From contig JAZDJS010000003.1 in the NCBI GenBank assembly GCA_043803745.1, positions 1 to 21,037 of the forward strand: DNA of 21,037 bases. Reading direction: 5' to 3'. The stretch is from an archaeon. GTDB lineage: Archaea > SpSt-1190 > DYHY01. This document shows positions 418 through 15,963 of this stretch, one piece after another; within the stretch, counting starts at the first letter, position 1, and every line of letters begins with the position of its first letter. Under the pieces are notes generated by a model, which was given only the letters and a program-made list of their open reading frames with translations, made no database searches and was not told the origin of the DNA. The position numbers and the translations under genes are program-made.

Positions 418-1017
418 TCAAAGACCTTGTCTCTTTCTGGTAGTGACTATATACAACACAAAACCTGCCAAACCAATCAAAAGCGCGCCTGCCGCAAGAT
501 AGGGCGTCTTTTTCGAAGCCTGCTGCGGCGCAAGCCCGGCAAGCCGGCAGTCCGGGGGGCAGGTTGTCGCCCGCTCCCCCTTCGAACAAACCCCGTCACC
601 GCAATAGGTTACAAGAGCCCGGTCGACAATCCTTCCGTCCTTTAGGAGGATTATCTCGATTTTCTTCCCTGCGTAGTTCTCCTTTTCCGGGAGGAGGAAG
701 CTTGCCTCCTGGATTCTGCTTGCGCTTTCAAGTCCGGTCGAGGAAATCTCCCCGCCATCGACGAAAAGGGAAACCTTGTACTGCTCATCCGAATATTCGT
801 TCGAAATCCATAAGGATGCTCCGGGTCCGGCAACAATTGAGAAGATTGAGGTATTCTCTATTTTCCCTGTTCCGGAAGCCGAAATCCGCGCGTTAACTCC
901 GCTGATTATTGTGGGCGCTTCTTCCTCTGCTGAAGAAAAGGAAACTAAGGAAGAAAGCGTCAGGGCAAGCAGGAAGACGCCGAGGAAAACGGGAAGGACT
1001 CTTTCTCTGTTAGTCAT
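418..1017 (-). CDS. Exported, C-terminally membrane-anchored surface protein with a CGDGxC...CPxDC motif
   Basis: N-terminal signal peptide (VFLGVFLLALTLSSLVSFSSA), motif YCGDGVCSKGERATTCPPDC, and a C-terminal TM helix (LAAGALLIGLAGFVLYIV) followed by the basic tail RKRQGL. It starts 13 bp after the stop of the giant gene. Confidence 0.8.
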   Translation of the reverse strand: MTNRERVLPVFLGVFLLALTLSSLVSFSSAEEEAPTIISGVNARISASGTGKIENTSIFSIVAGPGASLWISNEYSDEQYKVSLFVDGGEISSTGLESASRIQEASFLLPEKENYAGKKIEIILLKDGRIVDRALVTYCGDGVCSKGERATTCPPDCRLAGLAPQQASKKTPYLAAGALLIGLAGFVLYIVTTRKRQGL

Positions 1018-1030
1018 TTTGCGTCAGACC

Positions 1031-4000
1031 TCACGTCAATCCTACGAGATGCCCGGGGTCAATTGTCTGCGCCCCTCCGCCGCTCCCAAAGCAGCAGCCC
1101 TGGCCGGCAAACCCGTAAGAGGCGCAGGTCCGATCTCCGCTCTGCGGGTTCTGGACCTCGTAATGCAAATGGACGTTTGAGGAACAGCCCTGGTTCCCCA
1201 TCCTCGCTATCGGGTCTCCGGTATGAACGGTCTGTCCAATCTGGACCTCTGCGGAATGGGGCATTATGTGGTAGAAAATCGACCTCCTTCCGTCGGGATG
1301 TTCTATTATTATCACGTTCTTGCTGCATTGAAGACAGCCTCCCCAATCTCCGGCATGGCAGGTTGCGCATTCGTCATAGTTCGGGGCATGGGAGCCGTCA
1401 ACCCAGCAGTTGGTTGTCGCGCCATCCTCAACCTTGATGATTGTCCCGTCGAAATCTGCGTAGATTGGCGCTCCCTCGATGTTCCCGGCAACCCCAAGGT
1501 CAAGGCCGTTGTGGGTGCCGCGGGCGCAATACTCTTCGGTAACAATCCCGTTCGGGACCGGGTTGGCATAGCCGCTTGCAGGTATTCCACCGGGATAGGG
1601 CGGGATTGGACCTAGGGGGGTTCCCGGACCGGTTCCCGGGACTCCCGGATTCCCGAAATATCTCCCGCCAAGCCAATCCCCTTCGCAAAGGGCATCGTCG
1701 CCGTTGAAAATTATTCCGGCGGAAGAGGAGGAAGAAGAAGAGCCTCCCGGATATGTTCCCGAAGTCCCGCAATCGTTGTCAAGATAGGGTCCCGGATTTA
1801 TCGTCGGCCTCCCGGTTTCCCCGGTGCAGCAAGTCTTTCCTGCCGCGTTAGCCTCTTCACAACCGGTGTCCCCTGGATCGCGCTCGCCCTCCATTGTGAA
1901 ATGCAGGTGCGGGCAGTTCGCAATCCCCTGCATCCCGACCCGCGCAATAACCTCCCCCCGCTCAACCCGCGCCCCGGGCTGCTTGAATTTTTCCGGAATC
2001 GAGCCCGGCTGAAGGTGTATGTATGTCGTGACTTTCCCGTCCCCGTGGTCTATCACTATCCTGTTTGTCGAGGCAGCCGAATCCTGGTATGTGTAAAGGG
2101 AGGTGTCAAGGGTCTGGCCGACGCACATTGTTGCCGGGTCCGACCCTGCGAGGACATAGCTTCTGGATTTCCTTGAATCGTCCCTTGCGAAACTTATCGT
2201 CCCTGACTGGGCCGCGAGAACCGGAGTCCCCTCGTCAGCGTAAAGGTCGATTGCCTTGTGCCAGTCCGGCCTTGCTACTGGGGGCGCGCAATACTGGGAG
2301 CCCGCGGCAGCATGGTTTCCGCTCGGGACTGGGTTGCAGTATGGGCCTGGGTTCGGAGTCGATCCTGAAGAGGAACCGGAATTGGCCCCGGACAAAAGCG
2401 GGCTTGTGAACTCGATTGTCCCGACAACCGCCTCGGCTTTGTCATATCCGCAGCAGCCCGGACCATAGCTGTTTATCCCCGATTCGGGGACCATTTCCGG
2501 GACGTAGTATTTCTTTGTCCCGACGCCGGGTGGATCGACCGACCAGATTTCCGCTGCCGGAAGATTCATCAGGGTACATTCGGATATCTGGTTGTTCCCG
2601 CCGGTTCCGAAAATCTTCGCAACAGCGGGGGTTGAAACATCCGCGCCAATCCCTCTTTCGCAATCCCTGTTGGTGTACGCGAACTTGAGGCCGAACTTGA
2701 ACTCGTCCGGGATTCCCTCAAGCGTCGTGCTGTCGGCCGGATTCTCCCGGAGCAGTGTTGAAAGCGCCCATCTAGAGTTCGTTATGGTCACCTCGCAGTC
2801 AAGATAGGAAAGCTTCACGTCAAGCTGCTTTTGTCCGGTGAAATGCGCCTGGTTCAGGGTCGGGAGCGGCGGGGCGAACCAGCATTTTTTATCTACGCCG
2901 ATTGGCCGCGGATATGCGCATCCGTTTAGGAGCTTTCCGCTGTCTGGGCCGCCGAAAATGTCGACTCCTAGTTCCGCGAAGCTCAGGGGGTCTGGAAGGT
3001 CGGCGGTGTTCCCCCAGGGCCTTCCGTTGATGCTCACCTGCATTGCATCGAAAATCGCCTGGCTTCCGGGTCCGGCATTCCTGAAATATTCATATGCTTC
3101 CTCGAAAACCCGCCTCCATGCAAGGACTTTCGCCGGATATTCGGTGAAGAGGGCCGGGTCATAGCCGTAGCTGCTTGAGATGAAAACCGGGAGTTCCCAG
3201 CCGCAGTTCGGCCCGTCCGGGTTTGCCTCGTCAAGGGCGCCCGCTCCCGCATTATGGCTTGAGGCAACATATGCAAGATAGCCGGAACAGTCGGAAAGGC
3301 TGCTGTAATATCCTGAGAGGATTTTGATTATCATGGGAGTCTGGACATCCGGAAGTCGCCAGTATGCGGAATCAATCCCGCCGCCGGAACAGCTCCAGCC
3401 GGGAATTGCCGACCTGTCCTCGTCAATTGTCTCCGCGGGGCATCCCTGGGAATCTGCTTTCACGGGAATGTTCGTCCTTCCGTAGCTTACGCTCGGGTCA
3501 TAACCCGGGAGGTCTTGGAGAAATGCGGAGTTTCCGCAGAACTGGCTTGCCTGGAGAGCGAAAAGCCCGACGCCTCCGTCGACTGTTGAGACGCCGCATA
3601 CGTCGAACATGCTTTCGGATGCCGCGATTGCGAAGAGGAACTCCTTCGGCAGCTCGTCGGTTTCCGGAAAATTGCCGGAGCCTTCAAGCGCGGCTGCCCG
3701 GAGGAGCATCCCTATCACGCTTTCCGGGCTTGAGGCAATCTTGTCATATTCGGCCTGGGCAACGTCAATCAGCCTTTCTCCGGCATGCACGCCGGCTCCG
3801 TCCCGGTAATTGACCTCGGAAAGCTCCTGCCACCATTCCTCCGAATAGCCCCGGCCCGGTTTAAGGTAGCCAAGGCTCCAGTCAATCTTGTAAAGCGGGA
3901 TTTCATAGGAACTTCCGGTTGGCACAATCGGGTTGTTCACGCAAAGGCCCTTCGCTCCCTGCGTCTTGTCCCCGCAGGGGACGTGCATTGCCTCTTCCGG

Positions 4001-7000
4001 CCTAAGGCCGGGGTCTGCATCAGTTATGGCGCAATCGTACCAGGGATCTTCTTGAGCGGAAGAACACACATCATGCCATCCTAGGGGCTCAGAAAAGACA
4101 AGATATGTGCAAGAATGCCCTGATAAGCCAGAACAATCCGTTGATTGAAGATCGCCTCCTGCCGAACAATAATATCTGCTTTTGGTGTGGTCAATTGAGC
4201 AGGCTCCCGGAATCTTATCAAGACAATAGTTGATGTAAACGCCATATTCAGACAAGAGCCCCTCGACCCCGGGGCAGGTTCTCGGACGTCCCGCAGCTAA
4301 CTCATTTGCGTAGCCCTTGAAGCATATTTCAATTGGCGTGCTCCTCCCATTCACGTCAACATCGTTCCTGCAGCCTGCGGAATATGCGCTCCCGCCATCA
4401 TAGCTGGTCCCTAGCCGCGGGTCGGAAAGGTCCGTTGCAGACCAACCGCTTGCTCCGAGCCACCAGTTGCAAACCGGCGGTTGGAGCGGGTCGTTCGGGT
4501 CGCAGCAGGGGACTTGCCCGGCAAGCGCCCCGCCGGGGCAGTTCACCCAGTAGTGTCCGCTGTCTCCTCTTGGCCAGCCGCTGGGCAAGCCTTGCCAATC
4601 ATTAATATCTGACCTGTGGGGGGGCCGTTCAATATCGTCAAGGCTTACGCACATGCAAAGATTGAAGTCTGACGGGTTTGCGGGGCTGTCAAGCTCCTCA
4701 TAGTCGAGGGGGTCGTTGGGTTTCCCGGCCTCGTAGCCGAAAACGCAGCAATGGTCGTTTATGTTCCTGCACCATTTGAACTGCCCGTAGCCCTTGTCGG
4801 GGCTGTTCGGATTCATCTCATGGCAAGTGATGCCGTTGCTTACGCAGATTCCCATCGAGCCGGTTTGCTCATCCTCATAGCAGCTGTTCGGGTTGACAAT
4901 TGCCTCGTTAAGGTTCGTTCCCGGATATTCGACAGAATCGACTGCGCAGGAATAGTTGTATACCTGCGCCTTCAGCTGGCAGGACATCCGGTACGGAACC
5001 GAAAGCTGGCCCTCGCAGGTTATGGCCCCCCGGTTCCCGTCAGGGCAGATATAATCCCCGATTTCGCAGGAATCCGCATCGGAGCGCTTGAAGAATCCGG
5101 AAATGCACTCGCCGTTCGGGCCAAGGGTGCAGGAAACCGAGTTCGGGACAATTGTCCTTGTCGGATGCCTTGCGATAAGGCGCGCTTCCTTCAGTATTTC
5201 GGAAATTGAAAAGCCGACAGCCCCGGTTGAATTGTCCTCGGAATAGACGAGCCCGTATCCGCTAAGATACCTTTCCTGGTTGGCAAGCCGGATTGTCGAC
5301 ACCCGTGTTGTGTGGTTTGCCGTCCCGTAAAGCTCGCCCCAGGGGGAAAAGCTCGGCTCAGCCCGCATTGACGAAAGGACTCCGGAGAATTCTTCCTTGA
5401 CGCATATCGGGCCCACGTCGATTTTCTCCTCCCGGGCGAGGTTGTACGCAGCCCTGATGAAACTCCTTGCCCTTGAATCCGGGGAAACCCCGGGCCAGTC
5501 CGCTGTCATGAAAATCTCCCGGTCCCCTTCGAGTTTCTCGAGGAGGAAGCTTTTGAGGATTTTCAGGCGGCCGAATCCGCTGCAAGTCGAGGGGGTGCTC
5601 GGATTGCAGTCGTCGAATTCCTCCTCAGGCGATTCGCTCCCGGTCGCATAGAACTCGATTATGTCGAAATAGTCCGAGGTGCCGCTGTAATACATTTCAC
5701 TTAGGAAGCTGAACTCGGAAAGGGTTGCATACCTGAACCTGGTGTAATTCACCGGGCGTAGGCTTGCGTCATACATGTAGGGCATCCAATAGTCGGAGGA
5801 CTGGCATTCCATCAGGCCGCCTGAGCCGTCCCTCGGAGTGTCGGGCCTTGTGCAGTCGACGTTCTGGGTCGGGAGGCAGTCTATGTTCTCGTGGGTCATG
5901 TATGCCGTTGAGCAGCGCTCAAGATATTTCAGCCCGAGGCACGGCTCCCCGAGGCAGCCGGTTGAAACCGAACCGCAGCCGGCGACCGAACTGTCAAGAT
6001 ATGTGTCGAAGGATTTCGGGTCGTCGGGATATCTGTCGTATCCGCAGGTCGGCGTCGGGGCAAGCGCCGGGAAGATTATCTTCAGGGACGGGCCAGCCTT
6101 TTTCGCCTCAAGGGAAGTGAGCTTCAGCATCCGGGCGAAGTCAATTGGCTCGATTCCCGCCTTTGACCATTCCTTTGCGGAATTCGGGAATTGCCAGGGG
6201 ATCAGGTAGTTTATCCCGTATTCCTCCCACCTCAGGTGCGAGACAAGCTCGCCCGCGAACTTGGCGAAATCGTTGATTCTTTCCGGAGCGGGCGCGGTGT
6301 TCCTGTCCAAATCGAGGGGCTTGTCAGCTTCGGCAACAGCCCATTCCGGAGCCCATCCAAGAACGGGGATTACCTCTATCCCCCTTCCGTAAATCCCTTC
6401 ATAGAACGCGTCAATCTCTTCCCAGTTGTATTCCCCATCCTCCTCCGGCTGGATATCCCGCCATTTCACAGGAAGTTTCACCCAGGTTGCCCCGACTGAG
6501 GCGGCGTTCTCGATTGCCTCCGCGCTGGGTTCCTCAAGGTAAAGGCAGCTTTTCTTGTATCCGCTCTCGGCCGTCGCGTTGTCATAAACTGAGATGTTCA
6601 CCCTGTTCGAAACCTCGTATTCCGAGAAAAGCTCCGCGTATTCGTTCAGTTTTGCGGGGAAGTTGTACCTTATGTTCTCAAGAACGCGGTCGACCAACGG
6701 CTTCAGCGGCCCGCTCACTTCCTGGGGGTTCACGACAATCTCGAAAGCCCTGTCGCTGTCCGGGCAGCGCTCCGGAAACTCATCGGTTTCCCTTGTTGTC
6801 AGGTAGGGCTTGCCCAGCGGGGTCATTTCAGACGCTTGGATGAAACCGCCGTTTTCGGAAACCTCTATCACGGCAAGCTGCAGTGAATATTCCGCAGCCT
6901 TCCTGATGTAAAGGCGCGCCTCCTCGCTTACGTGGAGCGCATTGATGAACTTGTTTTCGGCTGACTCGACAGTTGCGTAAAGGTCAATTGGCCTGTTGAG

Positions 7001-7087
7001 GGCAATCCAGACGTATGCAATGACGCCTATTGCGAAGGCAATCACCAGGAGCCCGAGCCATTCCGCAGCCTGGGATTTCCGTTTCAT
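1031..7087 (-). CDS. Giant (~2018 aa) pilin-leader, Cys-rich multidomain protein: GH-A-like barrel + SLT-like domain + two M23 peptidase domains
   Basis: Start reassigned to ATG 7087 (MKRKSQAAEWLGLLVIAFAIGVIAYVWI), which overlaps the upstream TGA as ATGA. GH5/GH39-like segment GATWVKLPVKWRDIQPEEDGEYNWEEID...GIEVIPVLGWAPEWA (~5380-6560). SLT-like FLFAIAASES...GVGLFAL...SHNAG...EYPAKVL (~3100-3760). M23 #1: HKAID...YIHL...HLHF (~1890-2280). M23 #2: HNGLD...FYHI...HLHYEV (~1100-1560). Confidence 0.9.
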   Translation of the reverse strand: MKRKSQAAEWLGLLVIAFAIGVIAYVWIALNRPIDLYATVESAENKFINALHVSEEARLYIRKAAEYSLQLAVIEVSENGGFIQASEMTPLGKPYLTTRETDEFPERCPDSDRAFEIVVNPQEVSGPLKPLVDRVLENIRYNFPAKLNEYAELFSEYEVSNRVNISVYDNATAESGYKKSCLYLEEPSAEAIENAASVGATWVKLPVKWRDIQPEEDGEYNWEEIDAFYEGIYGRGIEVIPVLGWAPEWAVAEADKPLDLDRNTAPAPERINDFAKFAGELVSHLRWEEYGINYLIPWQFPNSAKEWSKAGIEPIDFARMLKLTSLEAKKAGPSLKIIFPALAPTPTCGYDRYPDDPKSFDTYLDSSVAGCGSVSTGCLGEPCLGLKYLERCSTAYMTHENIDCLPTQNVDCTRPDTPRDGSGGLMECQSSDYWMPYMYDASLRPVNYTRFRYATLSEFSFLSEMYYSGTSDYFDIIEFYATGSESPEEEFDDCNPSTPSTCSGFGRLKILKSFLLEKLEGDREIFMTADWPGVSPDSRARSFIRAAYNLAREEKIDVGPICVKEEFSGVLSSMRAEPSFSPWGELYGTANHTTRVSTIRLANQERYLSGYGLVYSEDNSTGAVGFSISEILKEARLIARHPTRTIVPNSVSCTLGPNGECISGFFKRSDADSCEIGDYICPDGNRGAITCEGQLSVPYRMSCQLKAQVYNYSCAVDSVEYPGTNLNEAIVNPNSCYEDEQTGSMGICVSNGITCHEMNPNSPDKGYGQFKWCRNINDHCCVFGYEAGKPNDPLDYEELDSPANPSDFNLCMCVSLDDIERPPHRSDINDWQGLPSGWPRGDSGHYWVNCPGGALAGQVPCCDPNDPLQPPVCNWWLGASGWSATDLSDPRLGTSYDGGSAYSAGCRNDVDVNGRSTPIEICFKGYANELAAGRPRTCPGVEGLLSEYGVYINYCLDKIPGACSIDHTKSRYYCSAGGDLQSTDCSGLSGHSCTYLVFSEPLGWHDVCSSAQEDPWYDCAITDADPGLRPEEAMHVPCGDKTQGAKGLCVNNPIVPTGSSYEIPLYKIDWSLGYLKPGRGYSEEWWQELSEVNYRDGAGVHAGERLIDVAQAEYDKIASSPESVIGMLLRAAALEGSGNFPETDELPKEFLFAIAASESMFDVCGVSTVDGGVGLFALQASQFCGNSAFLQDLPGYDPSVSYGRTNIPVKADSQGCPAETIDEDRSAIPGWSCSGGGIDSAYWRLPDVQTPMIIKILSGYYSSLSDCSGYLAYVASSHNAGAGALDEANPDGPNCGWELPVFISSSYGYDPALFTEYPAKVLAWRRVFEEAYEYFRNAGPGSQAIFDAMQVSINGRPWGNTADLPDPLSFAELGVDIFGGPDSGKLLNGCAYPRPIGVDKKCWFAPPLPTLNQAHFTGQKQLDVKLSYLDCEVTITNSRWALSTLLRENPADSTTLEGIPDEFKFGLKFAYTNRDCERGIGADVSTPAVAKIFGTGGNNQISECTLMNLPAAEIWSVDPPGVGTKKYYVPEMVPESGINSYGPGCCGYDKAEAVVGTIEFTSPLLSGANSGSSSGSTPNPGPYCNPVPSGNHAAAGSQYCAPPVARPDWHKAIDLYADEGTPVLAAQSGTISFARDDSRKSRSYVLAGSDPATMCVGQTLDTSLYTYQDSAASTNRIVIDHGDGKVTTYIHLQPGSIPEKFKQPGARVERGEVIARVGMQGIANCPHLHFTMEGERDPGDTGCEEANAAGKTCCTGETGRPTINPGPYLDNDCGTSGTYPGGSSSSSSSAGIIFNGDDALCEGDWLGGRYFGNPGVPGTGPGTPLGPIPPYPGGIPASGYANPVPNGIVTEEYCARGTHNGLDLGVAGNIEGAPIYADFDGTIIKVEDGATTNCWVDGSHAPNYDECATCHAGDWGGCLQCSKNVIIIEHPDGRRSIFYHIMPHSAEVQIGQTVHTGDPIARMGNQGCSSNVHLHYEVQNPQSGDRTCASYGFAGQGCCFGSGGGAQTIDPGHLVGLT

Positions 7088-7815
7088 TTCTCGCCGCACC
7101 TCCCATCCGAAACGAACCCGCTGCAGCACTCGGTTCCGCTCGCGGCCGGCGCGCCAGTCTCCTTGCAGAATGGCCTTCCGGCATCGGACGAGGAATATCC
7201 CTCGGCAATCGAAAGGTCGTAGATGAACTGGGCGGTTAGCCTTGCCTGGTTGTCAATGAACGGAGGCACCGGGATGAAGTAGGAGTTGCCGTTCCTTGCG
7301 CTCGCAATCATCCCCTGCTCTCCAAGGGTTGCCTCGAGGGCGGAGCAGTTCTGGCTTTCCTCGGAATAGAGCCCGGGTGAAAGCATCTGGGTCAGGATGG
7401 TCCCGCCGTCGGGCCCCGCAAGCGCATAGTCGAAGCAGTGGTCGGAATATTTGGCAAGCTCGGTTTTCGCGAATTCGCCGAGGATTTCCCTGATGAGGCT
7501 GTCTGCGACAAGGGTTTCCCTGCCAAGGTCATATTCGGTCCTTCCCGTCGCTGCGGAAACCGCCACTAGGTCGTAGAATGAGATCGGGAAATGATTCAGG
7601 TAGCCGACGGTCTTGTAGGAAAGCGCCTGGAGCGTCGGCTTCTGATCCCCCTCGAGGGTCTTCTCCGAAATGTTGAACTGGACCTTGAGCTGGGTTGTCG
7701 CGATTATTATGACCGCCCCTATCACAAGGATTGCCGCGAGAATGACTATCAGAAGCGGCATCCCGAACTGGGCCTTTCTTCTGCTATGCGCCAGTTCCAA
7801 CGCCTCCCTCGACAT
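7084..7815 (-). CDS. Type IV pilin-like protein (class III signal peptide), no recognisable enzyme domain
   Basis: RRKA|QFGMPLLIVILAAILVIGAVIII leader and a Cys-rich C-terminus (FCKETG...ECCSGFVSDGRC). The start is uncertain: ATG 7815, TTG 7800 (after GGGAGG) or 7851. It overlaps both neighbouring genes. Confidence 0.75.
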   Translation of the reverse strand: MSREALELAHSRRKAQFGMPLLIVILAAILVIGAVIIIATTQLKVQFNISEKTLEGDQKPTLQALSYKTVGYLNHFPISFYDLVAVSAATGRTEYDLGRETLVADSLIREILGEFAKTELAKYSDHCFDYALAGPDGGTILTQMLSPGLYSEESQNCSALEATLGEQGMIASARNGNSYFIPVPPFIDNQARLTAQFIYDLSIAEGYSSSDAGRPFCKETGAPAASGTECCSGFVSDGRCGEK

Positions 7816-9064
7816 CCCAGCAGGAAGAGAATGAAGTGTAGTAATAAACAATCCGCTCTGCGGACGCCCTTATGTTGCTCCTGGGGTCCGGGGTTTCAGT
7901 CCAGTCAATGTAGCGCTCAACCTGGTCGACTCCGGCAACGTTCGCAAAGGCAACGTAATTGACAATGCATTGGCCTGCCGATTCCGCGCCGGAGAAATAA
8001 TCCGCGTTCGCCTTCAGGTTCTCGGCAAGGAGCTCAAAATCCGCGGAAGCAGTCAGGCTCGGGTCGAATCCGGTTTCAAGGAACAGGACTGCCCGCACAA
8101 GGTTCGGGTCAATCCCCGCATCCGAGGAAACCTGCTCGATTTTCTCGGTAATGGGCGTCCCGTCCGAGGCAGTCAGGACCTTCAGCCCGTCGATAAGGGT
8201 TGCTTCCTCAAGGGTGAAATGCCTCGATATTTCGGAAAGGGGGAGCTCCTCGCACCGGAGGTATTTGGTCACCTGCCTGTCCGGGTCCGAGCGGGCAATG
8301 TACGGAAGGAGGATTTCCGAATAAGACGTCCTTTCGGTTCCGAGCGGGCGGGGTTTTTCGTAGAACTTGTTTATCAGGGAAACCGCGGTCAGGTATTCCT
8401 CTTCAAGGGAATCCTCGTCGAAGCATTCCTCTGTTTTCTTGACGAAAACGTCCAGGACGCCGAAATCGTACTTCCTTATCTGGTTCCCCTCGTAAACCGC
8501 GATCGAAACCGGGAGCGCATAAGCCCCGACAGCCGCCTCGTCTCCGGCATCGGACCACATGCTTGCCGAAATTGACCTGTCATAGGTCGATTCTACGTAT
8601 TCTTCAACTTCCGTCTGGAGTGAATATGGAAGAACCTTGAACGCCCCGAAAACCCACATCAGTCCCGTGCTAGAATCCTTTACGGTGGCAGCCCAGGAAT
8701 AGCATTTCGTCCTCAGCTCGTAAGGGGTTTCCGTTTCAGTTATTCCCGAGCCTCTGCTGAATTCGGCGAGCCTGAGGAATTCGGAGAACTGCTTGTCGAG
8801 CTTCCGCGAGTCAAGGATGTTCTTGTGTATCCCCTGCTGCTGGGTTGTGTCAATGAGGAAGTCCGGGGCGCCGGTCATTCTTGTAGCAACCAGCACCGCG
8901 AACCTGTTCTGGTTGTGCTCCTCGATGATTGAGATGAACTGGGTTTGGGAGACTATCAGTCCCACCGCGATTGCAACTATCACTACGAGGAAAATCAGGG
9001 ACATGAGAAGGAATGACGGGTTCTGCGCTTTCCTCATGTGCGTTTCCATTGCAATTTCGGCCAT
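7784..9064 (-). CDS. Pilin-like protein with a C-terminal degenerate SLT-like domain
   Basis: MRKA|QNPSFLLMSLIFLVVIVAIAVGLIV leader. The C-terminal EKIEQVSSDAGIDPNLVRAVLFLETGFDPS matches the SLT N-terminal helix and catalytic-Glu motif, but no GLMQ motif follows. Confidence 0.8.
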   Translation of the reverse strand: MAEIAMETHMRKAQNPSFLLMSLIFLVVIVAIAVGLIVSQTQFISIIEEHNQNRFAVLVATRMTGAPDFLIDTTQQQGIHKNILDSRKLDKQFSEFLRLAEFSRGSGITETETPYELRTKCYSWAATVKDSSTGLMWVFGAFKVLPYSLQTEVEEYVESTYDRSISASMWSDAGDEAAVGAYALPVSIAVYEGNQIRKYDFGVLDVFVKKTEECFDEDSLEEEYLTAVSLINKFYEKPRPLGTERTSYSEILLPYIARSDPDRQVTKYLRCEELPLSEISRHFTLEEATLIDGLKVLTASDGTPITEKIEQVSSDAGIDPNLVRAVLFLETGFDPSLTASADFELLAENLKANADYFSGAESAGQCIVNYVAFANVAGVDQVERYIDWTETPDPRSNIRASAERIVYYYTSFSSCWDVEGGVGTGA

Positions 9065-9073
9065 TTTCAGAAT

Positions 9074-10321
9074 TCAGAAAGCGCAGATTGAGGGCGTCTT
9101 TGCGCTGCAGCCGGCTTCAGTGAGGCCTCCTCTCCTCAATGCAAAGCTGATTCTTTCCTTATAGCCTCCTTGCGGAAGGCTTGTGAGCGATTTCTTCAGG
9201 ACAAGGGTGTATTTCCCGCCCCTCGGTATGTGGAAGACCGCGGGTTCGATGTTCGAAACCGGAAGGTAAAACACCGCGCCGGTCCGGTCATCCGTCCGGA
9301 GGACTGCAACGAAACCGTATCTCGCGGAGCCAAGACCCCTTGACTCGAAGAAGCGGGCGAATGCGGTTCCCCTCGCAACCTCGCATGCGTTCTGCTTCTC
9401 GACAGTGTAGCGGCTCCCGTCGCCGAAAGTCATTGCGGAAAGGACAGGCCCCTCGTTTGTTGCCGTGAAAATCGGCAGCTCGAGGAACTCCGCATCCTGC
9501 AGGTTCGAGACCCAGGATTCCGGACCGCCAAGGGCATCGATGAAGCCGGTCATCCATTCTGTAAGGTCTCCGTCCCCGTCGAAATCGTATATGTCAACGC
9601 CCCCAGTCATCCCGAAGGTCCCCCCGCTATATGCGCCGAGCGCAGCCTGGAAATCCCCGCCGAAATAGTCAAGCTTCGTCTTTAGTTCCCTGGCGCCGGC
9701 GTTTATGTTTGCCTCGGGTTCCCTGTTCTCATCAATGCAGGGCACGGCCATTATCCCGCAGTATCCGGAGCCGAGGCTTTCCCCTGAAAGCAGCCCGGAA
9801 GTTGCATAGTCCGGGGCATAGTGGTTTATCCCTGACTCCAAATATGCAATTGCGAGCAGGTATGGCAGGGGGACGCCATAGTTCTCGGAAGCCGCATCGA
9901 AGAGCTCCTTGTAGGGGCCCTCGGAATAAAGCTCGAATGCCTCGTTCCCGAGTTCGCTGACCGGGCAGTATGTCCCTAGATCCGGGACCTCCCTGAGCGT
10001 CGGACCTACCTTTGTGCCCTCCTCGGTTTCGGTTCCGATTGCAATGTCGTAGCTGAAAAGCCCCGGAAGGGTTACGCAGTAAATCCCGTTCTGGGGCGCC
10101 GAGGAAACCGCAGTTACCGCGCCGGCAACCGCCCTTGAGACAATCCTTGCCTCAAGGAAATTGGATGTTGTCGCGAGGAAGGAAACCTCGTTCGCAATTC
10201 CCCAGATTGCGACAATCATTGCAATCGAGACAACGACAAGCTCAAGCATCGTTGAAGTCAGGAAAGCTTGAGCAGGCCTCCTTCTGAGAGAATTGCGCCT
10301 CCGTTTCCCAAAGCCACCCAT
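9074..10321 (-). CDS. Pilin-like protein with an internal SLT/lytic transglycosylase domain
   Basis: Basic leader RRRPA|QAFLTSTMLELVVVSIAMIVAIWG. All three SLT motif regions are present: ELFDAASENYGVPLPYLLAIAYLESG, GIMAV...PEANINAGARELK, and FGGDFQAALGAYSGG. A DFDGDGD acidic loop follows. Confidence 0.85.
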   Translation of the reverse strand: MGGFGKRRRNSLRRRPAQAFLTSTMLELVVVSIAMIVAIWGIANEVSFLATTSNFLEARIVSRAVAGAVTAVSSAPQNGIYCVTLPGLFSYDIAIGTETEEGTKVGPTLREVPDLGTYCPVSELGNEAFELYSEGPYKELFDAASENYGVPLPYLLAIAYLESGINHYAPDYATSGLLSGESLGSGYCGIMAVPCIDENREPEANINAGARELKTKLDYFGGDFQAALGAYSGGTFGMTGGVDIYDFDGDGDLTEWMTGFIDALGGPESWVSNLQDAEFLELPIFTATNEGPVLSAMTFGDGSRYTVEKQNACEVARGTAFARFFESRGLGSARYGFVAVLRTDDRTGAVFYLPVSNIEPAVFHIPRGGKYTLVLKKSLTSLPQGGYKERISFALRRGGLTEAGCSAKTPSICAF

Positions 10322-10397: not shown

Positions 10398-11441
10398 TTA
10401 AGTTGACTTGCCCTCTTCCGGAGCAGCCGCCTTCGCTCCTTCCCCTCCGGAATCATCCTGTATGTCGGGCTCTCCTTCGTTCTCGACGGTCATTCCTCCG
10501 CCCACTGTGCGAAGGCCGACCGGATAAAGCGCGGCAGCCGCTGCCTTGAGCGCAGAGGCGGCGTTCGGATTCTGCGTGTCTGAAAATGCTTTCGCAAGGT
10601 CAGTGAACTGGGTGGGGAAGAATAGCTTCGTTGACTTGCCCTCGGCAATCCTCGGGAGCCCTTCCTTGATGTAAAGGTAGTTGAGGGCGTTCTGGTCGAG
10701 CTTCTTTGCGGCATCTCCGAGCGCCTCTATCATCGTCTTCTGCGCCCTCGCCTGGTATTGCGCGGCAGCCCATTCCTCCTTCGCCTTCCTTCTTGCGTGC
10801 ATTGCAAACTGGATGTTCTCCGGAATCGTGACGTTCGTTATCTGGACGTCGATTATCGTCACCCCCCACTCCGAAACAAGCGGTTCCATCTTTACCTTGA
10901 CAAGGTCGTTCACCTTCTCAAGCTCGCCGAAAAGCTCGTTGAGGGTCAGGTCGGATGCGATGTCCCGGAGCGCCCCGTAAACGAAGCCGGCCGCGGTTTT
11001 CTCGAAGGTCTTCACCTTGAGGACCGCTTTCTTCGGGTCAAGGACCTGGTAGTAGACAATCGTGTCAATTGCCGTCCGGATCTCGTCCGTCGTGATCACC
11101 TCCTGGGGCGGAAGGTCGAACGATTGGACGCGCAGGTCGATTACCTCGACAGATTCCAGGAAAGGTATCAGGAGGACCCAGCCCGGCCCGGCGACCCTGT
11201 GGAAATGCCCCATGCGGAAGACGACCGCCCGCTTGTATTCCGGGACTTCCAGGACGAATCCGGCGTTGAAGAGGAGCTGGAAAATGAAATAGACGAGGAC
11301 GAGCCCCAGCGCAACATATGCAGCAATCCTTATTTCGGGGAAGAAGTAGGCTGCAATCGCAACCATCACGAGGGCGAGCAGAGTAAGCTCGATCTTCTCA
11401 GTTACATATTCGCGGACTGTGCGGTACTTTGCCTTTGCCAT
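10398..11441 (-). CDS. SPFH/band-7 (stomatin-like) membrane protein
   Basis: Two N-terminal TM segments, then VPEYKRAVVFRMG...GPG...IPFLES...IDLRVQSFDLPPQEVITTD...YYQVLDPKKAV...LRDIA...WGVTIIDVQI. These are classic SPFH motifs. Confidence 0.93.
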   Translation of the reverse strand: MAKAKYRTVREYVTEKIELTLLALVMVAIAAYFFPEIRIAAYVALGLVLVYFIFQLLFNAGFVLEVPEYKRAVVFRMGHFHRVAGPGWVLLIPFLESVEVIDLRVQSFDLPPQEVITTDEIRTAIDTIVYYQVLDPKKAVLKVKTFEKTAAGFVYGALRDIASDLTLNELFGELEKVNDLVKVKMEPLVSEWGVTIIDVQITNVTIPENIQFAMHARRKAKEEWAAAQYQARAQKTMIEALGDAAKKLDQNALNYLYIKEGLPRIAEGKSTKLFFPTQFTDLAKAFSDTQNPNAASALKAAAAALYPVGLRTVGGGMTVENEGEPDIQDDSGGEGAKAAAPEEGKST

Positions 11442-12215: not shown

Positions 12216-13100
12216 TTAAGTTTTGCCCAATTTTTCCCCTGCAAACGGTTTTTTCGTTGACTTCGGGGAATCCCATCTCGCAAGGGAGCCCATTTTGCAA
12301 ATGGAAAAAAGGAATCCCGCCGAGAAGGAGAACGCCTCGAAAGGAACTGAAAGAATGGAGAAAAACAGCTCATCCGGACCCGAGCAGATTCCGGGCGCGG
12401 TTTCCACAAAAACCCTGAGCCGCTCAACCGGGGAAATTGTCGGGACTCTTTTTCCGGAAAAAACGAGCTGGAAATGCCCTGCTGCAATCCGCATCCTCTG
12501 GGTGAAAAGCTCCCAGACATTTTCCGGCGGGGTGAGGAAAACCGTTGCCTTGGGGGAATAAACCGTTGAGAATCCCCTGCTTTCCGAGAAAGCCTGCAGG
12601 AAAGCGTCATCGTTTATTGTTCCGTCCGGAACTATTTCCGGCGCGGCGCGGGCCTTGATTGCGAAAGCCTCGCCAGCCTTCGGCTTGCCGCGCGCGCCAA
12701 ACGCGTTGTGCATCTCCCAGTTGAGCCTGCCGAAGAATCCGCAGAAGTTTTTTCCGGAAGCGGGCATGACCTTGGCAACGGAAATCCCGACGCCCGGGTT
12801 TGCTGAACCAAGGGGCTTGAGAATTTCCCGGAAAAAATCCTTGCCAACCCAGTCATCAGCCTGAATGAAAACAACTGCATCGATGCCGCGCTCCCTTGCA
12901 TATTTGAGTATCCGGGAAACTGCGGCAGCTTTTCCGAGCCGCCCCTTCGAAGCAAGAACCGTCCGCTTCCTTTTTCTGAGAAACTCTGCCGAACCATCGG
13001 TTCCGTCAACTGCGAATACCGCGCGCCCGGGGAGGGTCGGCTCAAGAGCGCGAAGGCAGGGGAGCTCGTCATATGCGCAGACCCCGGCAATCCATTTCAT
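12216..13100 (-). CDS. Glycosyltransferase family 2 protein
   Basis: GVCAYDE, AVDGTDGS, GKAAAV, FIQADD (DxD-like), GEAFAI, INDDAFL and QRMRI (QxxRW-like). Confidence 0.85.
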   Translation of the reverse strand: MKWIAGVCAYDELPCLRALEPTLPGRAVFAVDGTDGSAEFLRKRKRTVLASKGRLGKAAAVSRILKYARERGIDAVVFIQADDWVGKDFFREILKPLGSANPGVGISVAKVMPASGKNFCGFFGRLNWEMHNAFGARGKPKAGEAFAIKARAAPEIVPDGTINDDAFLQAFSESRGFSTVYSPKATVFLTPPENVWELFTQRMRIAAGHFQLVFSGKRVPTISPVERLRVFVETAPGICSGPDELFFSILSVPFEAFSFSAGFLFSICKMGSLARWDSPKSTKKPFAGEKLGKT

Positions 13101-13129
13101 CCTGCGGTCACGCAGCCAGGACAGAGGTC

Positions 13130-13140
13130 TTTTTATTTAA
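13130..13140. promoter_or_regulatory. Shared AT-rich/TATA element between the divergent GT2 genes
   Basis: TTTTTATTTAA sits in a 59-bp gap between ATG 13100 (-) and ATG 13160 (+), and reads as a TATA-like box on both strands. Confidence 0.5.
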
Positions 13141-13159
13141 GTCCCGCTCCCCGCAGACA

Positions 13160-13846
13160 ATGATTTCGGTAATAATCCCCGCCCTTGACGAAGCCAGCTC
13201 AATTGGCGCGGTCGTTTCGGGCGCGGAGAAATCCCTGAGGAGGACGCGGCATGAGATACTCGTTGTTGACGGCGGTTCGAAGGATGGGACGGTTAATCTT
13301 GCGAAGAAGGCGGGGGCAAGGGCGATTTCCGAAAAGCGGCGGGGTTATGGGCGCGCATATCTGACTGGGATTGCCGCTTCCCGGGGGAGGCTTGTTGTCC
13401 TTATTGACGGGGACGGGACATATCCGGCGGAAAGGATTGGCGCGCTTTGCAAGCTCCTCGACAAATCCGGGGCGGATGTCCTTCTTGCCTCCCGATTTGC
13501 CCACGGGCCGGGGCGGCTTAAGCCGGGCGCAATGTCCCTACTTAACCTTCTCGGCAACCGGCTCCTGACCTACGCGACAAACCTCCTTTTCAGAACGCGC
13601 CTTTCCGATTCTCAGACCGGCTTCCGGGTCTTCCGGGCGTCCGCCCTGAAAAGACTCCCGCTGCGGAGCAGCGGAATGGAATTCGCATCGGAGCTTAACG
13701 TTCTTTCCGCAAGGGCCGGACTGAACCTGATCGAAATTCCGGTTGAGTATGGAAAGCGCAGGGGCGGAAGCAAATCCAAGCTGAATCCCTTTTCCGACGG
13801 GGCAAGGCATTTCCTGTTCCTTTTGAAATCTTTCGCTTCCGGATGA
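13160..13846 (+). CDS. Glycosyltransferase family 2, dolichol/polyprenol-phosphate glycosyltransferase (DPM1-like)
   Basis: Start reassigned to ATG 13160. Motifs: MISVIIPALDEA, EILVVDGGSKDGT, RGYGRAYLTG, IDGDGTYP, ASRF, SDSQTGFRVF, EIPVEY..R.G.SK. Confidence 0.92.
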   Translation: MISVIIPALDEASSIGAVVSGAEKSLRRTRHEILVVDGGSKDGTVNLAKKAGARAISEKRRGYGRAYLTGIAASRGRLVVLIDGDGTYPAERIGALCKLLDKSGADVLLASRFAHGPGRLKPGAMSLLNLLGNRLLTYATNLLFRTRLSDSQTGFRVFRASALKRLPLRSSGMEFASELNVLSARAGLNLIEIPVEYGKRRGGSKSKLNPFSDGARHFLFLLKSFASG

Positions 13847-13909
13847 AATCCGGCGAATCAGCCGGAAATCCGAAGAACGTTTATTAACCCCTTTTCTCGT
13901 TTTTTTCGC

Positions 13910-14242
13910 ATGGCACAGGGCGGAGGAGCAGCTGACGAGCAGCCGGGACGCGCGACACACAGCCACGACAGGGACAACAGCGGGACCATTTTCATCGGGA
14001 ACAGGCCGCCGATGAACTATGTCATGGCTGCGATAACCCAGTTCCATAACGGCAACACCGAGATAACGCTGAAGGCGCGCGGGCGGGCGATTTCCGTTGC
14101 AGTTGACGTTGCAGAAATAGTCAGGAATCGCTTCCTCCCGGACATCAAGGTCCTCGGGATAAAGATAGGGACCGAATCCGTCGAGAACGAGAAGAAGGAA
14201 AAGTTCAACGTTTCCTCGATTGAGATTGGGCTCGGAAGGTAG
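13910..14242 (+). CDS. albA: DNA/RNA-binding chromatin protein Alba
   Basis: IFIGNRPPMNYVMA...LKARGRAISVAVDVAEIVRNRFL...IKIGTE...VSSIEI is the canonical Alba signature. TTTATTAA lies at 13880-13887. Confidence 0.96.
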   Translation: MAQGGGAADEQPGRATHSHDRDNSGTIFIGNRPPMNYVMAAITQFHNGNTEITLKARGRAISVAVDVAEIVRNRFLPDIKVLGIKIGTESVENEKKEKFNVSSIEIGLGR

Positions 14243-14301
14243 GGAAGGGAAAAGCAGGGCCCAAGCCAGTTATTTTAAACGGGCTTTTGCTCCGAAACGC
14301 A

Positions 14302-15318
14302 ATGGTTCCTGACAGTTCAACAGGTCCCCTTCCAGCCGGCTGCGTCAAATGCCTGCGCGGGGAAAAGCTCGTCCTCTTCGTAACCGGAATTTGCGCGAAG
14401 AAATGCTACTATTGCTCGCTATCAAACCGGAGGAAAATGAAGGACGCTCCATTTGCGAACGAGCGGAAGGTTCACGGAAAAAAGGACCTTCTTTTGGAAG
14501 CCGAACGGATGGACGCAACCGGAGCCGGGGTTACCGGGGGAGACCCCCTTTTGAAAATCAGTAGGACTCTGAAACTTGTAAAAGCGCTAAAGAAGAAATA
14601 TGGAAAGGGCTTCCACATCCACCTCTACACAACTGGCGAACTTGGCACTCCTGAAAAATTCCGTCTCCTTCGGGAGGCGGGAGTTGACGAAATCCGCTTC
14701 CATTTCAACCGGAAGGAAATCCTTGACGCCCTGAAACTTGACTGGGTTGTCGGAGGGGAGATTCCGGCAATTCCCGGGAACTGGAGGGAAACGACCGGCT
14801 ATCTGAGATTTCTTGCGAAAGCAGGCGCAGCCTTCTGCAACCTGAACGAGCTTGACTGGTCTGAAGGGAACCTTTGGGCGTTCAAGAGGCGCGGCTTTGG
14901 GCTCAAGGCGCGCGAAAGCTATGCAGTAAAGGGAAGCGAGGAGTTTGCAAAGAAAGTGCTTGCCTGGGCAAGGAAAGCGGTCCCGAAGCTCTCGGTCCAC
15001 TATTGTTCCAGCAGGACCAAGGATGCAGTCCAGGTCAGGAAGCGGTATATCCGGACTGCCGCAAGAATCAAAAAGCCGTTCGAGAAAATTGACCGGGACG
15101 GCCTTCTTGTCAAGGGGGTTGCCGAAGGGGTGAGAAGGGTTCCCGGTCTCGGGCGCGCCCAGTTCTACAACAAGAAAAAAAGGCGGGTTGAATTCTCCCC
15201 GAAACTTGCAAAAAAGATTTCTGGGATTTTCCCAGGGAAAGTTTCAATTGTCTCGGTTGCGCCGACTTCTGAGGAGACTGAGATGGAGCGGCTGCCCTTC
15301 CGGAAAAGAAAAGAATGA
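14302..15318 (+). CDS. Radical SAM protein (archaeal, PFL-activating-enzyme-related family)
   Basis: LPAGCVKCLRGEKLVLFVTGICAKKCYYC (CxxxCxxC), ANER, GVTGGDPL, FHIHLYT, DEIRFH, EIPAIPG, NLNEL, VHYCSSRTKDAVQ. ATG 14302 is preferred, with TTTTAAA at 14273-14279. Confidence 0.9.
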   Translation: MVPDSSTGPLPAGCVKCLRGEKLVLFVTGICAKKCYYCSLSNRRKMKDAPFANERKVHGKKDLLLEAERMDATGAGVTGGDPLLKISRTLKLVKALKKKYGKGFHIHLYTTGELGTPEKFRLLREAGVDEIRFHFNRKEILDALKLDWVVGGEIPAIPGNWRETTGYLRFLAKAGAAFCNLNELDWSEGNLWAFKRRGFGLKARESYAVKGSEEFAKKVLAWARKAVPKLSVHYCSSRTKDAVQVRKRYIRTAARIKKPFEKIDRDGLLVKGVAEGVRRVPGLGRAQFYNKKKRRVEFSPKLAKKISGIFPGKVSIVSVAPTSEETEMERLPFRKRKE

Positions 15319-15372
15319 CCCCTAGTTAGTGAACTCAGGAACACTTAAAAATAGTGACTGAACTTTCTCGGG

Positions 15373-15939
15373 ATGGCAGACGCAGAACTTTTGAGGGTTT
15401 ATTTCGCGCATCCGAAACCGCTCTATCCGCAGGTTATCCCGGGAATAGAAGAAGACCTCCTCGCAGAAATAAATCGGCTCCTTCCGGAAGCGCTCGGAGT
15501 CGAGAAAATTGAAATTGAAAATCCGAGTGAACCTCAACATCAGAAAATCGTTGGTGCGCTCTTCAGCAGAAAACGCGACGGAATGGCTTACTTTACAACT
15601 TCGCTTGTGCCGAGCTGCGACGCGACTATTTATTGCGGATATCCGGAAATGGAAGGAGACCCCGCCGGCGGCTACATTGGCGCAGGCGTTGCAAAGGAAG
15701 TTCAAAGAGCTTTTGAGCTCAATCAGCCCGTCTTCGAGCTGAGATATCGGGTTGCTGGGAACGACCGCCTTGACGGCTATGCGGAACTTGTTCGGGTCAC
15801 TGAGCTTGACCCGTCCCGAAGGTTCAGCTCGGACACTGGACAGGAAATCAGACTAACTTCGGCAAGAAACAGTCACTACCGGGAAAAATACAAAAGCATC
15901 CAGCAGTCGAGCGACCTCTCTGCTGCAAGGAAGCGATAG
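15373..15939 (+). CDS. Nucleoside 2-deoxyribosyltransferase (NDT)-like fold protein
   Basis: RVYFAHP...NPS...LVPSCDATIY...IGAGVAKEVQRAFELNQPVFEL follows the NDT/N-glycosidase pattern (xYxAxP; D-h-h-h; G-x3-E-x3-A-x5-PV). Confidence 0.6.
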   Translation: MADAELLRVYFAHPKPLYPQVIPGIEEDLLAEINRLLPEALGVEKIEIENPSEPQHQKIVGALFSRKRDGMAYFTTSLVPSCDATIYCGYPEMEGDPAGGYIGAGVAKEVQRAFELNQPVFELRYRVAGNDRLDGYAELVRVTELDPSRRFSSDTGQEIRLTSARNSHYREKYKSIQQSSDLSAARKR

Positions 15940-15963
15940 ACGAAATAGAGTGAAGAACAGAAA

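Follow-up and report, generated by a model that had tools for sequence, protein, structure and literature searches.

A giant archaeal protein with a pilin-like N-terminus and predicted peptidoglycan-cutting domains

Peptidoglycan hydrolases have been described from several archaea that lie close to the case considered here. M23 homologues (zoocin A) in Halobacteriales and Nanoarchaeia are read as anti-bacterial, which was shown for one protein (PMC12352652, available text), and large lytic murein transglycosylases of Woesearchaeota are read as predatory (PMC9723730, available text). Here we analysed a 21,037-bp stretch of archaeal DNA, hereafter the window, which is one entire contig (C3) of genome G000. 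A gene at window positions 1031–7087 on the minus strand encodes a protein of 2018 residues, hereafter the giant protein. Our results suggest, with moderate confidence, that it is an extracellular, N-terminally anchored multi-enzyme, pilin-like and held on a filament or in the membrane, with bacterial peptidoglycan, which its host does not make, as its most likely substrate. Archaeal and DPANN peptidoglycan hydrolases as such are already published, and we did not find the architecture of the giant protein described. A literature search, with most subscription journals outside its coverage, returned no report of a giant DPANN peptidoglycan hydrolase that is pilin-like or linked to a filament.

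The giant protein resembles the published archaeal hydrolases in bearing M23 domains in an archaeon without murein. In the available text, those proteins are modular combinations of M23 and PG_binding_1, whereas the giant protein carries a pilin-like N-terminus, a probably dead barrel resembling glycoside hydrolase family 39 (GH39), an SLT-like domain and two M23 domains, and has no known wall-binding module (PMC12352652). With the Woesearchaeota transglycosylases it shares GH23-type domains in DPANN, proposed to act against bacterial walls; the available part of that paper mentions no M23, pilin-like or filament context, and the SLT-like domain of the giant protein is far more divergent (PMC9723730). 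By analogy, the virion-associated wall hydrolases of phages would be the nearest functional analogues: the M23 domains match PHROG families of endolysins and tape-measure proteins (phrog_6700, E = 7.9e-14; phrog_10030, E = 7.4e-8), and the SLT protein encoded nearby has matches there to a lytic tail protein and to an internal virion protein. Phage hydrolases ride at the end of a long structure and pierce the wall locally, which offers a functional parallel to the giant protein. The genetic context differs, since the giant gene lies in an archaeal type-IV-filament-like cluster and no phage structural genes occur in the window.

Two further systems are comparable in size or in delivery. The SPEARE proteins reportedly carry protease, adhesion and nuclease domains and are said to face archaeal hosts. 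Like the giant protein, these SPEARE giants of Nanohaloarchaeota are multi-domain DPANN surface proteins, proposed in the available text to act on the envelope of a partner (PMC6642349). In the bindosome, class III non-pilin surface proteins depend on a type-IV-filament-like assembly ATPase (PMC3047682, PMC13705601). The Sulfolobus bindosome thus provides a precedent for a prepilin-type signal on functional surface proteins, such as is predicted here from sequence; its proteins bind sugars and belong to Thermoproteota, whereas hydrolase cargo of the size of the giant protein is not mentioned in the available parts of these sources (PMC3047682, PMC13705601). A 2026 survey reports archaeal type IV filament systems to be scarce in DPANN, and the words peptidoglycan, hydrolase, M23 and transglycosylase never occur in its main text (PMC13705601). 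Pilin-like delivery of the giant protein, if true, would represent a new cargo class for archaeal type IV filaments, none such being mentioned in that main text.

An earlier note on this stretch, made from its letters, had described a polypeptide of ~2018 residues at 1031–7087 combining several wall-hydrolase domains. Indeed, 2018 codons without a stop run from the ATG at 7087, and the minus-strand frame is the sole long one at 1031–7129. The note had missed the strand, the archaeal host with no Mur-ligase match, the conserved cluster of pilin-like genes with its second SLT protein, and the exchange of enzyme modules between orthologues. Four members of the family were found, namely the window protein; P0003 (2189 residues, 47% identical to the window protein, from a metagenome contig); P0004 (2152 residues, 37% identical, from genome G002); and P0005, the C-terminal 1107 residues of a gene in genome G004 whose N-terminal part is located at the edge of another contig.

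The C-terminal part of the giant protein contains two Peptidase_M23 domains. The whole protein matched PF01551 over two stretches (E = 1.8e-34, 118.2 bits against a cut-off of 28.7), and each segment also matched by itself (E = 2.3e-19 and 69.8 bits for the first, E = 3.8e-17 and 62.7 bits for the second). The first domain (residues about 1566–1760; 1808–2392, minus strand) contains H1610, D1614, H1691, H1727 and H1729, and the second (residues 1851–2018 with the stop codon; 1031–1537, minus strand) contains H1859, D1863, H1940, H1973 and H1975. Within its segment, the first domain itself spans residues about 1582–1745. We take these residues, from general knowledge of the family, to be the zinc ligands of HxxxD and HxH and the catalytic His. 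Supporting this assignment, both domains align to 6jmx and 9gy1 at HxxxD, the catalytic His and HxH, and 12 solved M23 chains were matched at E <= 0.001 (best, 9gy1_A, E = 4.4e-10). In the C-terminal M23 domain, none of the five motif residues varies among the four family members. Significance in PF01551, one of the tests set in the earlier note, was thereby reached. The two M23 domains with their motifs, which that note had read from the letters, are thus confirmed, as is the Ser/Gly/Pro-rich linker between them (1538–1807, minus strand), in which both strings it quoted were located (SSSSSSSAG at residues 1783–1791; PGVPGT...PYPGG at 1814–1834).

The two M23 domains are 31% identical to each other and therefore do not represent a recent repeat. 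Each has a Cys-containing insertion between the domain halves and a C-terminal CC motif. Both pass the family cut-off and keep the motifs of lysostaphin, LytM, zoocin A, Pgp3 and DipM (PF01551), but they differ from these in forming a tandem pair on a 2018-residue archaeal protein and in their Cys insertions and CC motifs. The genome also encodes a small M23 protein (C49:37495–37785, locus L001; 211 residues) with an N-terminal hydrophobic helix, which has neither the Cys insertion nor the CC motif.

Residues 1061–1395 (2903–3907, minus strand) are assigned to a divergent SLT/GH23-like domain, characterized by Glu1158-Ser1159, GLFALQ (1174–1179) and SHNAGAG (1277–1283). We take these to be the ES, GLMQ-like and AYNxG-like motifs of SLT, presumably with Glu1158 as the catalytic acid; its codon lies at 3614–3616 (minus strand), precisely where the earlier note had placed the Glu of AIAASES. 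Alignment A2 comprises five SLT-like copies, one from the window protein and two each from P0003 and P0005. E-S, GxGLFAL and YxASxxNxGxG are invariant in all five, including Glu1158, which aligned to the Glu of 'ARQES' in Slt70. SLT was the only Pfam family matched, by three of the five copies, with the best E value (3.6e-5) for the second copy of P0005; this copy is related to that of the window (BLASTP, 8e-23), and P0005 in its entirety reached 22 bits in Pfam SLT against a cut-off of 21.3. When the A2 profile was run against the PDB, chains of Slt70 were its only two matches; the alignment ran through 'ARQES' and 'GLMQ', and its fit at 'AAYNAGPG' was weaker. Additionally, of the 30 named Atlas clusters nearest to the domain, 25 are SLT clusters (score 0.93). 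The domain thus shares with E. coli Slt70 (GH23, PF01464) the same motifs in the same order, but is ~335 residues long against the 117 positions of the Pfam model, with long insertions between motifs and an E value of about 0.1. We consider homology of this region to SLT quite likely, and by its motifs it is a probable lytic transglycosylase or lysozyme with Glu1158 as the putative catalytic residue.

Residues 185–575 (5363–6535, minus strand) form a clan GH-A, GH39/PslG-like (β/α)8 barrel, as indicated by phmmer, by the Pfam matches of relatives, by AlphaFold2 and by Foldseek. A phmmer search of 1.84 billion representatives with residues 181–1380 gave 1155 matches at E <= 0.001, with E values down to 5.6e-22; among the best 150 of these 1155, every non-family match covered residues about 190–350 alone. 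Matches of GH5, GH39 or GH42 type were detected by Pfam in 15 of the 22 non-family matches scanned. The AlphaFold2 model from a 101-row alignment had a mean predicted local distance difference test score (pLDDT) of 73; 195 residues scored at least 90, and confidence was low at model residues 166–265 (a Cys-rich insertion) and 392–445. Consistently, Foldseek against the PDB placed PslG first (5bx9, E = 2.5e-9, template-modelling scores 0.45/0.49), followed by Bacteroides GH39 and then by GH1 and GH53 barrels. Homology and fold therefore bear out the GH-A-like barrel of the earlier note.

The catalytic columns speak against the glycan-cutting role given to the barrel in that note. The acid/base column, which follows strand 4, is occupied by Glu in 90 of 97 relatives and by Phe300 in the window protein, with F, A, P and A in the four family rows; at the nucleophile column, which follows strand 7, Glu is found in 68 of 97 relatives and the window protein has Ala529, adjoined by Asp530, with A, A, P and A in the family rows. 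In motif terms, WNEPN has become PWQFPN and TE(F/Y)G has become MTADW. Because both canonical catalytic Glu positions are replaced, the barrel is probably a non-catalytic module, and possibly a glycan-binding one. The idea that one molecule could cut both the glycan backbone and the cross-links thus survives in part, through two apparently intact M23 domains and a probable SLT domain, and no longer involves the barrel. Relative to PslG and GH39, its best structural match, the confidently modelled barrel not only lacks WNEPN and TE(F/Y)G but also has a Cys-rich insertion of 104 residues (350–453; 5729–6040, minus strand) with 7 Cys (6.7%), which is not found in the GH-A relatives of the alignment and is modelled with pLDDT below 50.

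Two observations concern the wider barrel family. In alignment A4 of the GH-A relatives, Arg replaces the nucleophile Glu in 10 of 97 ('...VRYGW'), and loss of catalysis may for this reason be common within the family. Six of the 22 scanned relatives (P0019, P0020, P0024, P0029, P0031 and P0033), of 870–1029 residues, carry a C-terminal Wzy_C domain (O-antigen ligase), so that a GH-A barrel is fused to a polymerase- or ligase-type membrane domain.

The N-terminus, including the start codon (residues 1–34; 6986–7087, minus strand), reads MKRKS-QAAEW and continues with ~25 hydrophobic residues, which fits a class III (prepilin-like) signal or a signal anchor. Residues 5–34 are the only hydrophobic segment of the 2018-residue protein. 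Class III signals consist of a short basic stretch, a small residue at position −1 and a hydrophobic helix of about 20 residues. In the window protein the putative cleavage site falls between MKRKS and QAAEW ahead of the helix, and in the orthologues it follows RKG or RRG, again ahead of a hydrophobic helix. The adjoining domain (residues 35–185; 6533–6985, minus strand), conserved in the family alignment A1 and without a Pfam match, recurs N-terminally in shorter single-helix proteins of related genomes (profile positions 19–103 in a 670-residue frame of G003 and 13–85 in a 357-residue frame of G001).

Between the barrel and the SLT-like domain lies a middle region (residues 576–1060; 3908–5362, minus strand) composed of a conserved block at ~620–700 and a Cys-rich part at 701–1060; it had no Pfam or PHROG match and could be aligned with P0003 and P0004 alone. 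The Cys-rich part contains 26 Cys in 360 residues (7.2%), out of 76 Cys in the whole protein, and these counts substantiate the Cys-rich stretches remarked upon earlier. One of them, previously taken for a Cys-rich spacer ahead of the first M23 domain, is no mere spacer: residues 1396–1565 (2393–2902, minus strand; CWFAPPLPTLN ... DCEVTITN ... PDEFKF ... GCCGY) are conserved more strongly than any other block of the family, A1 having its densest run of invariant columns there, and this orphan domain had no Pfam, PHROG or Atlas match. The family offers a GH39-like barrel without its catalytic pair and two conserved blocks (35–185 and 1396–1565) without known relatives.

The gene neighbourhood bears on how the protein might be mounted. 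Upstream on the minus strand are genes for a 255-residue protein (7084–7851; RRKAQ N-terminus, one helix), a 426-residue protein (7784–9064; RKAQ N-terminus, one helix) and a 415-residue protein (9074–10321; RPAQ N-terminus, one N-terminal helix) with a canonical SLT domain (Pfam E = 7.2e-9), which is the sole Pfam-level SLT in the genome. The ATG of the giant gene overlaps the TGA of the 255-residue gene (ATGA, 7087–7084) and is preceded by a GGAGGTG box (7103–7097), which suggests that the two genes are probably co-translated. Downstream, a gene conserved beside the giant gene (418–1017, minus strand) encodes a protein of 199 residues that has a signal-like helix at its N-terminus and a membrane helix at its C-terminus. 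A basic-[A/G/S]-Q/hydrophobic N-terminus is common to four consecutive genes and their orthologues. The order of the cluster is kept in L008, the locus of the same-family genome G002, and in L036, the locus of the same-genus genome G004; the 426-residue protein has orthologues in both. The surface proteins are 27–41% identical to those of L008, with 41% for the positional orthologue of the 415-residue protein, and the 199-residue protein is 46% identical to its L007 counterpart and 41% to that of L008.

In G002, the giant gene is preceded by a gene for a 766-residue ATPase, one for a 689-residue protein with ~10 hydrophobic segments, and 12 same-strand genes for proteins with a single N-terminal helix. 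The ATPase matched the models of TadA (2e-38) and FlaI (2.4e-35), both below their cut-offs, and more weakly that of the bindosome ATPase BasE (3.7e-18, far below cut-off). Similarly, in G004 and G001 the orthologous ATPase is encoded 10–19 kb from the giant gene or from the homologue of its N-terminal domain. The host genome contains one Peptidase_A24 gene (C31) and five T2SSE-type ATPases (C31, C34, C36, C48 and C49). As predicted from gene order, the layout is that of an archaeal type-IV-filament locus whose pilin-like proteins have no match among pilin hidden Markov models (HMMs).

The host appears to be a small DPANN-type archaeon, a label that is approximate, with a GTDB phylum of 17 species genomes only. 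Its genome comprises 1.23 Mb in 51 contigs and is 90% complete, and the giant gene makes up 0.5% of it. Ribosomal protein L32e is encoded, and the L32e model matched archaeal controls only (4); a search of the same 90%-complete genome with the archaeal small-subunit model gave no 16S ribosomal RNA gene. Mur_ligase_M had no match in it, compared with matches in 12 of 14 control genomes, so that the genome, at 90% completeness, shows no indication that the archaeon synthesizes murein or pseudomurein peptides itself. Three predicted wall-cutting domains on one protein of a murein-free archaeon point to bacteria as partners or prey.

The same observations bear on a self-directed role, in which the hydrolases would open the organism's own wall polymer for filament assembly. 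Bacterial secretion and pilus clusters do carry specialised lytic transglycosylases, and an SLT protein is encoded here inside the filament gene cluster. However, the organism is archaeal and lacks a Mur-ligase match in its 90%-complete genome, and two M23 domains plus an SLT-like domain on 2,018 residues would go far beyond local gap-making; we regard self-remodelling as very improbable.

For an enzyme directed at bacteria, a mechanism can be proposed. The A24 prepilin peptidase would process the class-III-like N-terminus, and the type-IV-filament machinery would mount the protein, which might be a minor pilin-like subunit, a terminal one, or part of a surface assembly resembling the bindosome. 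The enzymes would be held off the cell by the presumably dead barrel, by the conserved orphan block and by the Cys-rich region, which, by its Cys content, might form the disulfide-stiffened stalk of the earlier note. The SLT-like domain could then cut glycan strands and the M23 domains peptide cross-links, and their combined action would open the bacterial wall locally, allowing the archaeon to attach, to reach the cytoplasm or to release nutrients. In this scheme, secretion and processing of the protein, its mounting on a filament, the stalk and bacterial murein as the target are all inferred. A more specific version, which we put forward only tentatively, is a type-IV-filament-borne 'warhead' of 2,000 residues that carries exchangeable wall-cutting modules behind the orphan domain and serves as a contact-dependent harpoon piercing bacterial peptidoglycan. 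If this were true, the lineage would live on or prey on bacteria, across a domain boundary.

Several results weigh against an anchored murein-cutting enzyme, some of them concerning what is cut and others how the protein is delivered. With regard to the former, the SLT-like copy of the window protein itself scored 12.6 bits (E = 0.1) where the Pfam cut-off is 21.3, so that significance in PF01464, which the earlier note had made a test, was not reached. The two matches of the A2 profile to Slt70 had E values of 0.09 and 0.15, about 0.1, and the Atlas matches have 111–118 of 256 features in common, as could arise by chance or from a remote relationship. Comparison of A2 by hhalign with three canonical SLT domains encoded at the same loci did not reach significance (probability 0.5%). 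The AlphaFold2 model of the segment, from the five-row alignment, was unusable (mean pLDDT 46.5); with this low-confidence model, Foldseek gave no match at E <= 0.001 and the best Z in VIA-align wide was 4.2 (MltD ranked only 43rd, Z 2.7), outcomes that speak neither for nor against a lysozyme-like α-helical fold. Likewise, phmmer with the segment against the PDB gave a best E of 0.41, and the domain had no PHROG match. Segment-wise modelling, as had been proposed, therefore worked for the barrel, which was modelled and matched, and failed for the SLT-like segment; the SLT-like assignment itself stands on a chain of homology and invariant motifs, below the Pfam cut-off and with no usable fold model. 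Furthermore, substrate specificity of the M23 domains is not readable off sequence, and the giant protein has no known wall-binding module (LysM, SH3b or PG_binding).

These results leave some room for a target other than bacterial murein. On this account the M23 domains would be general metallopeptidases of Gly-rich or cross-linked substrates, the SLT-like domain would be inactive or bind another glycan, and the protein would act on an archaeal host envelope made of S-layer glycoprotein, pseudomurein or exopolysaccharide. Cultured Micrarchaeota do have archaeal hosts, and the GH39/PslG-like barrel is related to exopolysaccharide enzymes, both of which, together with the sub-threshold SLT evidence for the window protein, would agree with such a target. 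Against it, the SLT motifs, Glu-Ser included, are invariant in all five copies, which argues for kept activity, and a canonical SLT protein is encoded within the same cluster. The M23 relatives found in the PDB, NCBIfam and PHROGs are all peptidoglycan enzymes or regulators. Pseudomurein, for its part, is joined by beta-1,3 links and by isopeptides of L-amino acids, and the enzymes known to cleave it are cysteine peptidases. Taken together, we find a non-murein target improbable.

As for delivery, the residue at the putative −1 position of the giant protein is Ser and not Gly or Ala, which is atypical, and neither the giant protein nor its neighbours nor the pilin-like genes of G002 matched any pilin or archaellin HMM of Pfam and NCBIfam. 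In the host genome, the orthologous ATPase and polytopic protein are encoded on another short contig, C34, and not on that of the window. The pilin leader of the earlier note is therefore plausible by motif and gene context but has no HMM match behind it. The same three observations would suit a membrane-anchored scavenger, which would keep an uncleaved signal anchor and digest free peptidoglycan debris or necromass for amino sugars and amino acids, with neither filament nor contact attack; it would use the same enzyme domains, and the genome is small (1.23 Mb). However, four consecutive genes and their orthologues have the same basic-[A/G/S]-Q N-terminus, and in G002 genes for a filament ATPase and a platform-like protein directly adjoin the run. 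A stalked architecture of 2,000 residues would also seem to exceed what digestion of debris needs. We therefore consider a scavenger rather unlikely and prefer a pilin-like multi-enzyme acting on bacterial peptidoglycan.

Comparison of the family members further shows how the enzyme modules vary. The scaffold is collinear through block 1396–1565, after which the enzyme sets diverge: the window protein continues with two M23 domains, P0003 and P0005 with a second SLT-like domain and one M23, and P0004, which is without the first SLT-like domain, with a canonical SLT, a second GH-A barrel in which VWNEPN and FTEIG are intact, and one M23. Orthologues thus appear to exchange their C-terminal enzyme set, as would suit adjustment to different walls, and the family would provide a natural example of enzyme-module swapping on a constant scaffold. 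The alignments are shallow, as only four members were available. Scans of genome contigs gave no locus and then 2, and a metagenome scan gave 1 locus; a search of proteins of nearly the same length gave 1 relative besides the query, and a word-indexed search for shorter proteins gave P0005 only. The A2 profile detected no further SLT-like copies at E <= 0.1 among 8000 candidates scored. Within the taxonomic family of the host (f1), the giant gene is present in three of four genomes, G000 included, and the fourth (84% complete) has a relative of the N-terminal domain only.

M23 matches in very long frames of G005 and G006 were considered as members of the same family and ruled out, since only the M23 part is common to them (profile positions about 1940–2100). 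As a separate observation, these two genomes, of the same class and 3.6–3.8 Mb in size, encode M23 inside open frames of 1887–2355 residues at L028–L033, some of them Cys-rich.

Module exchange also bears on whether the giant reading frame might be an assembly chimera or a decaying gene that fuses unrelated pieces. The first M23 domain (residues about 1566–1760) has, alone among the blocks, no positional equivalent in the three other family members, and the G004 orthologue is split over two contig ends, as could be expected of such an artefact. Nevertheless, the 2018 codons are free of stops, and the guanine-plus-cytosine fraction is 0.55–0.59 throughout 1–7 kb of the window and even over the giant frame. 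Collinear homologues from three other assemblies span residues 1–1565 and about 1790–2018, and the other members hold a different enzyme module at exactly the position of the first M23 domain. Identity of merely 31% between the two M23 domains additionally argues against recent repeat collapse. A chimera, judged here from homologues alone, appears scarcely credible. The split of the G004 orthologue (G004:C2 end and G004:C6 end; L036, L007/L011) falls inside the Cys-rich middle, a region that seems hard to assemble.

Some minor features of the locus and genome were also noted. The 426-residue neighbour was considered as a third SLT protein with a conserved catalytic site ('LFLETGFDP') and rejected as such, since Arg replaces the Glu in the orthologue from L008. 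Its C-terminal part has an SLT-like start motif, IDPNLVRAVLFLETGFDP, and the orthologue from G004 retains its Glu; the protein may hold a decayed SLT domain. Directly upstream of the pilin-like run, an SPFH/Band 7 protein (10398–11441, minus strand) is 81% identical to its G002 counterpart, compared with 27–41% for the adjoining surface proteins, which fits fast evolution of exposed proteins. Among the T2SSE ATPases, the one at C31:26200–26757 is 9 kb away from the single Peptidase_A24 gene, and five such ATPases in a genome of 1.23 Mb represent an unusually large investment in type-IV-filament-like systems. Farther along the window, two GT2 glycosyltransferases (12216–13100, minus strand; 13073–13846, plus strand) are followed by a radical SAM gene (14287–15318) and two orphan open reading frames, and the region 12216–16992 may be an envelope glycan-modification patch beside the surface-protein cluster. 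Finally, positions 17106–19679 (minus strand) encode a large cytoplasmic protein, an 857-residue orphan with no Pfam or NCBIfam match and no hydrophobic segment.

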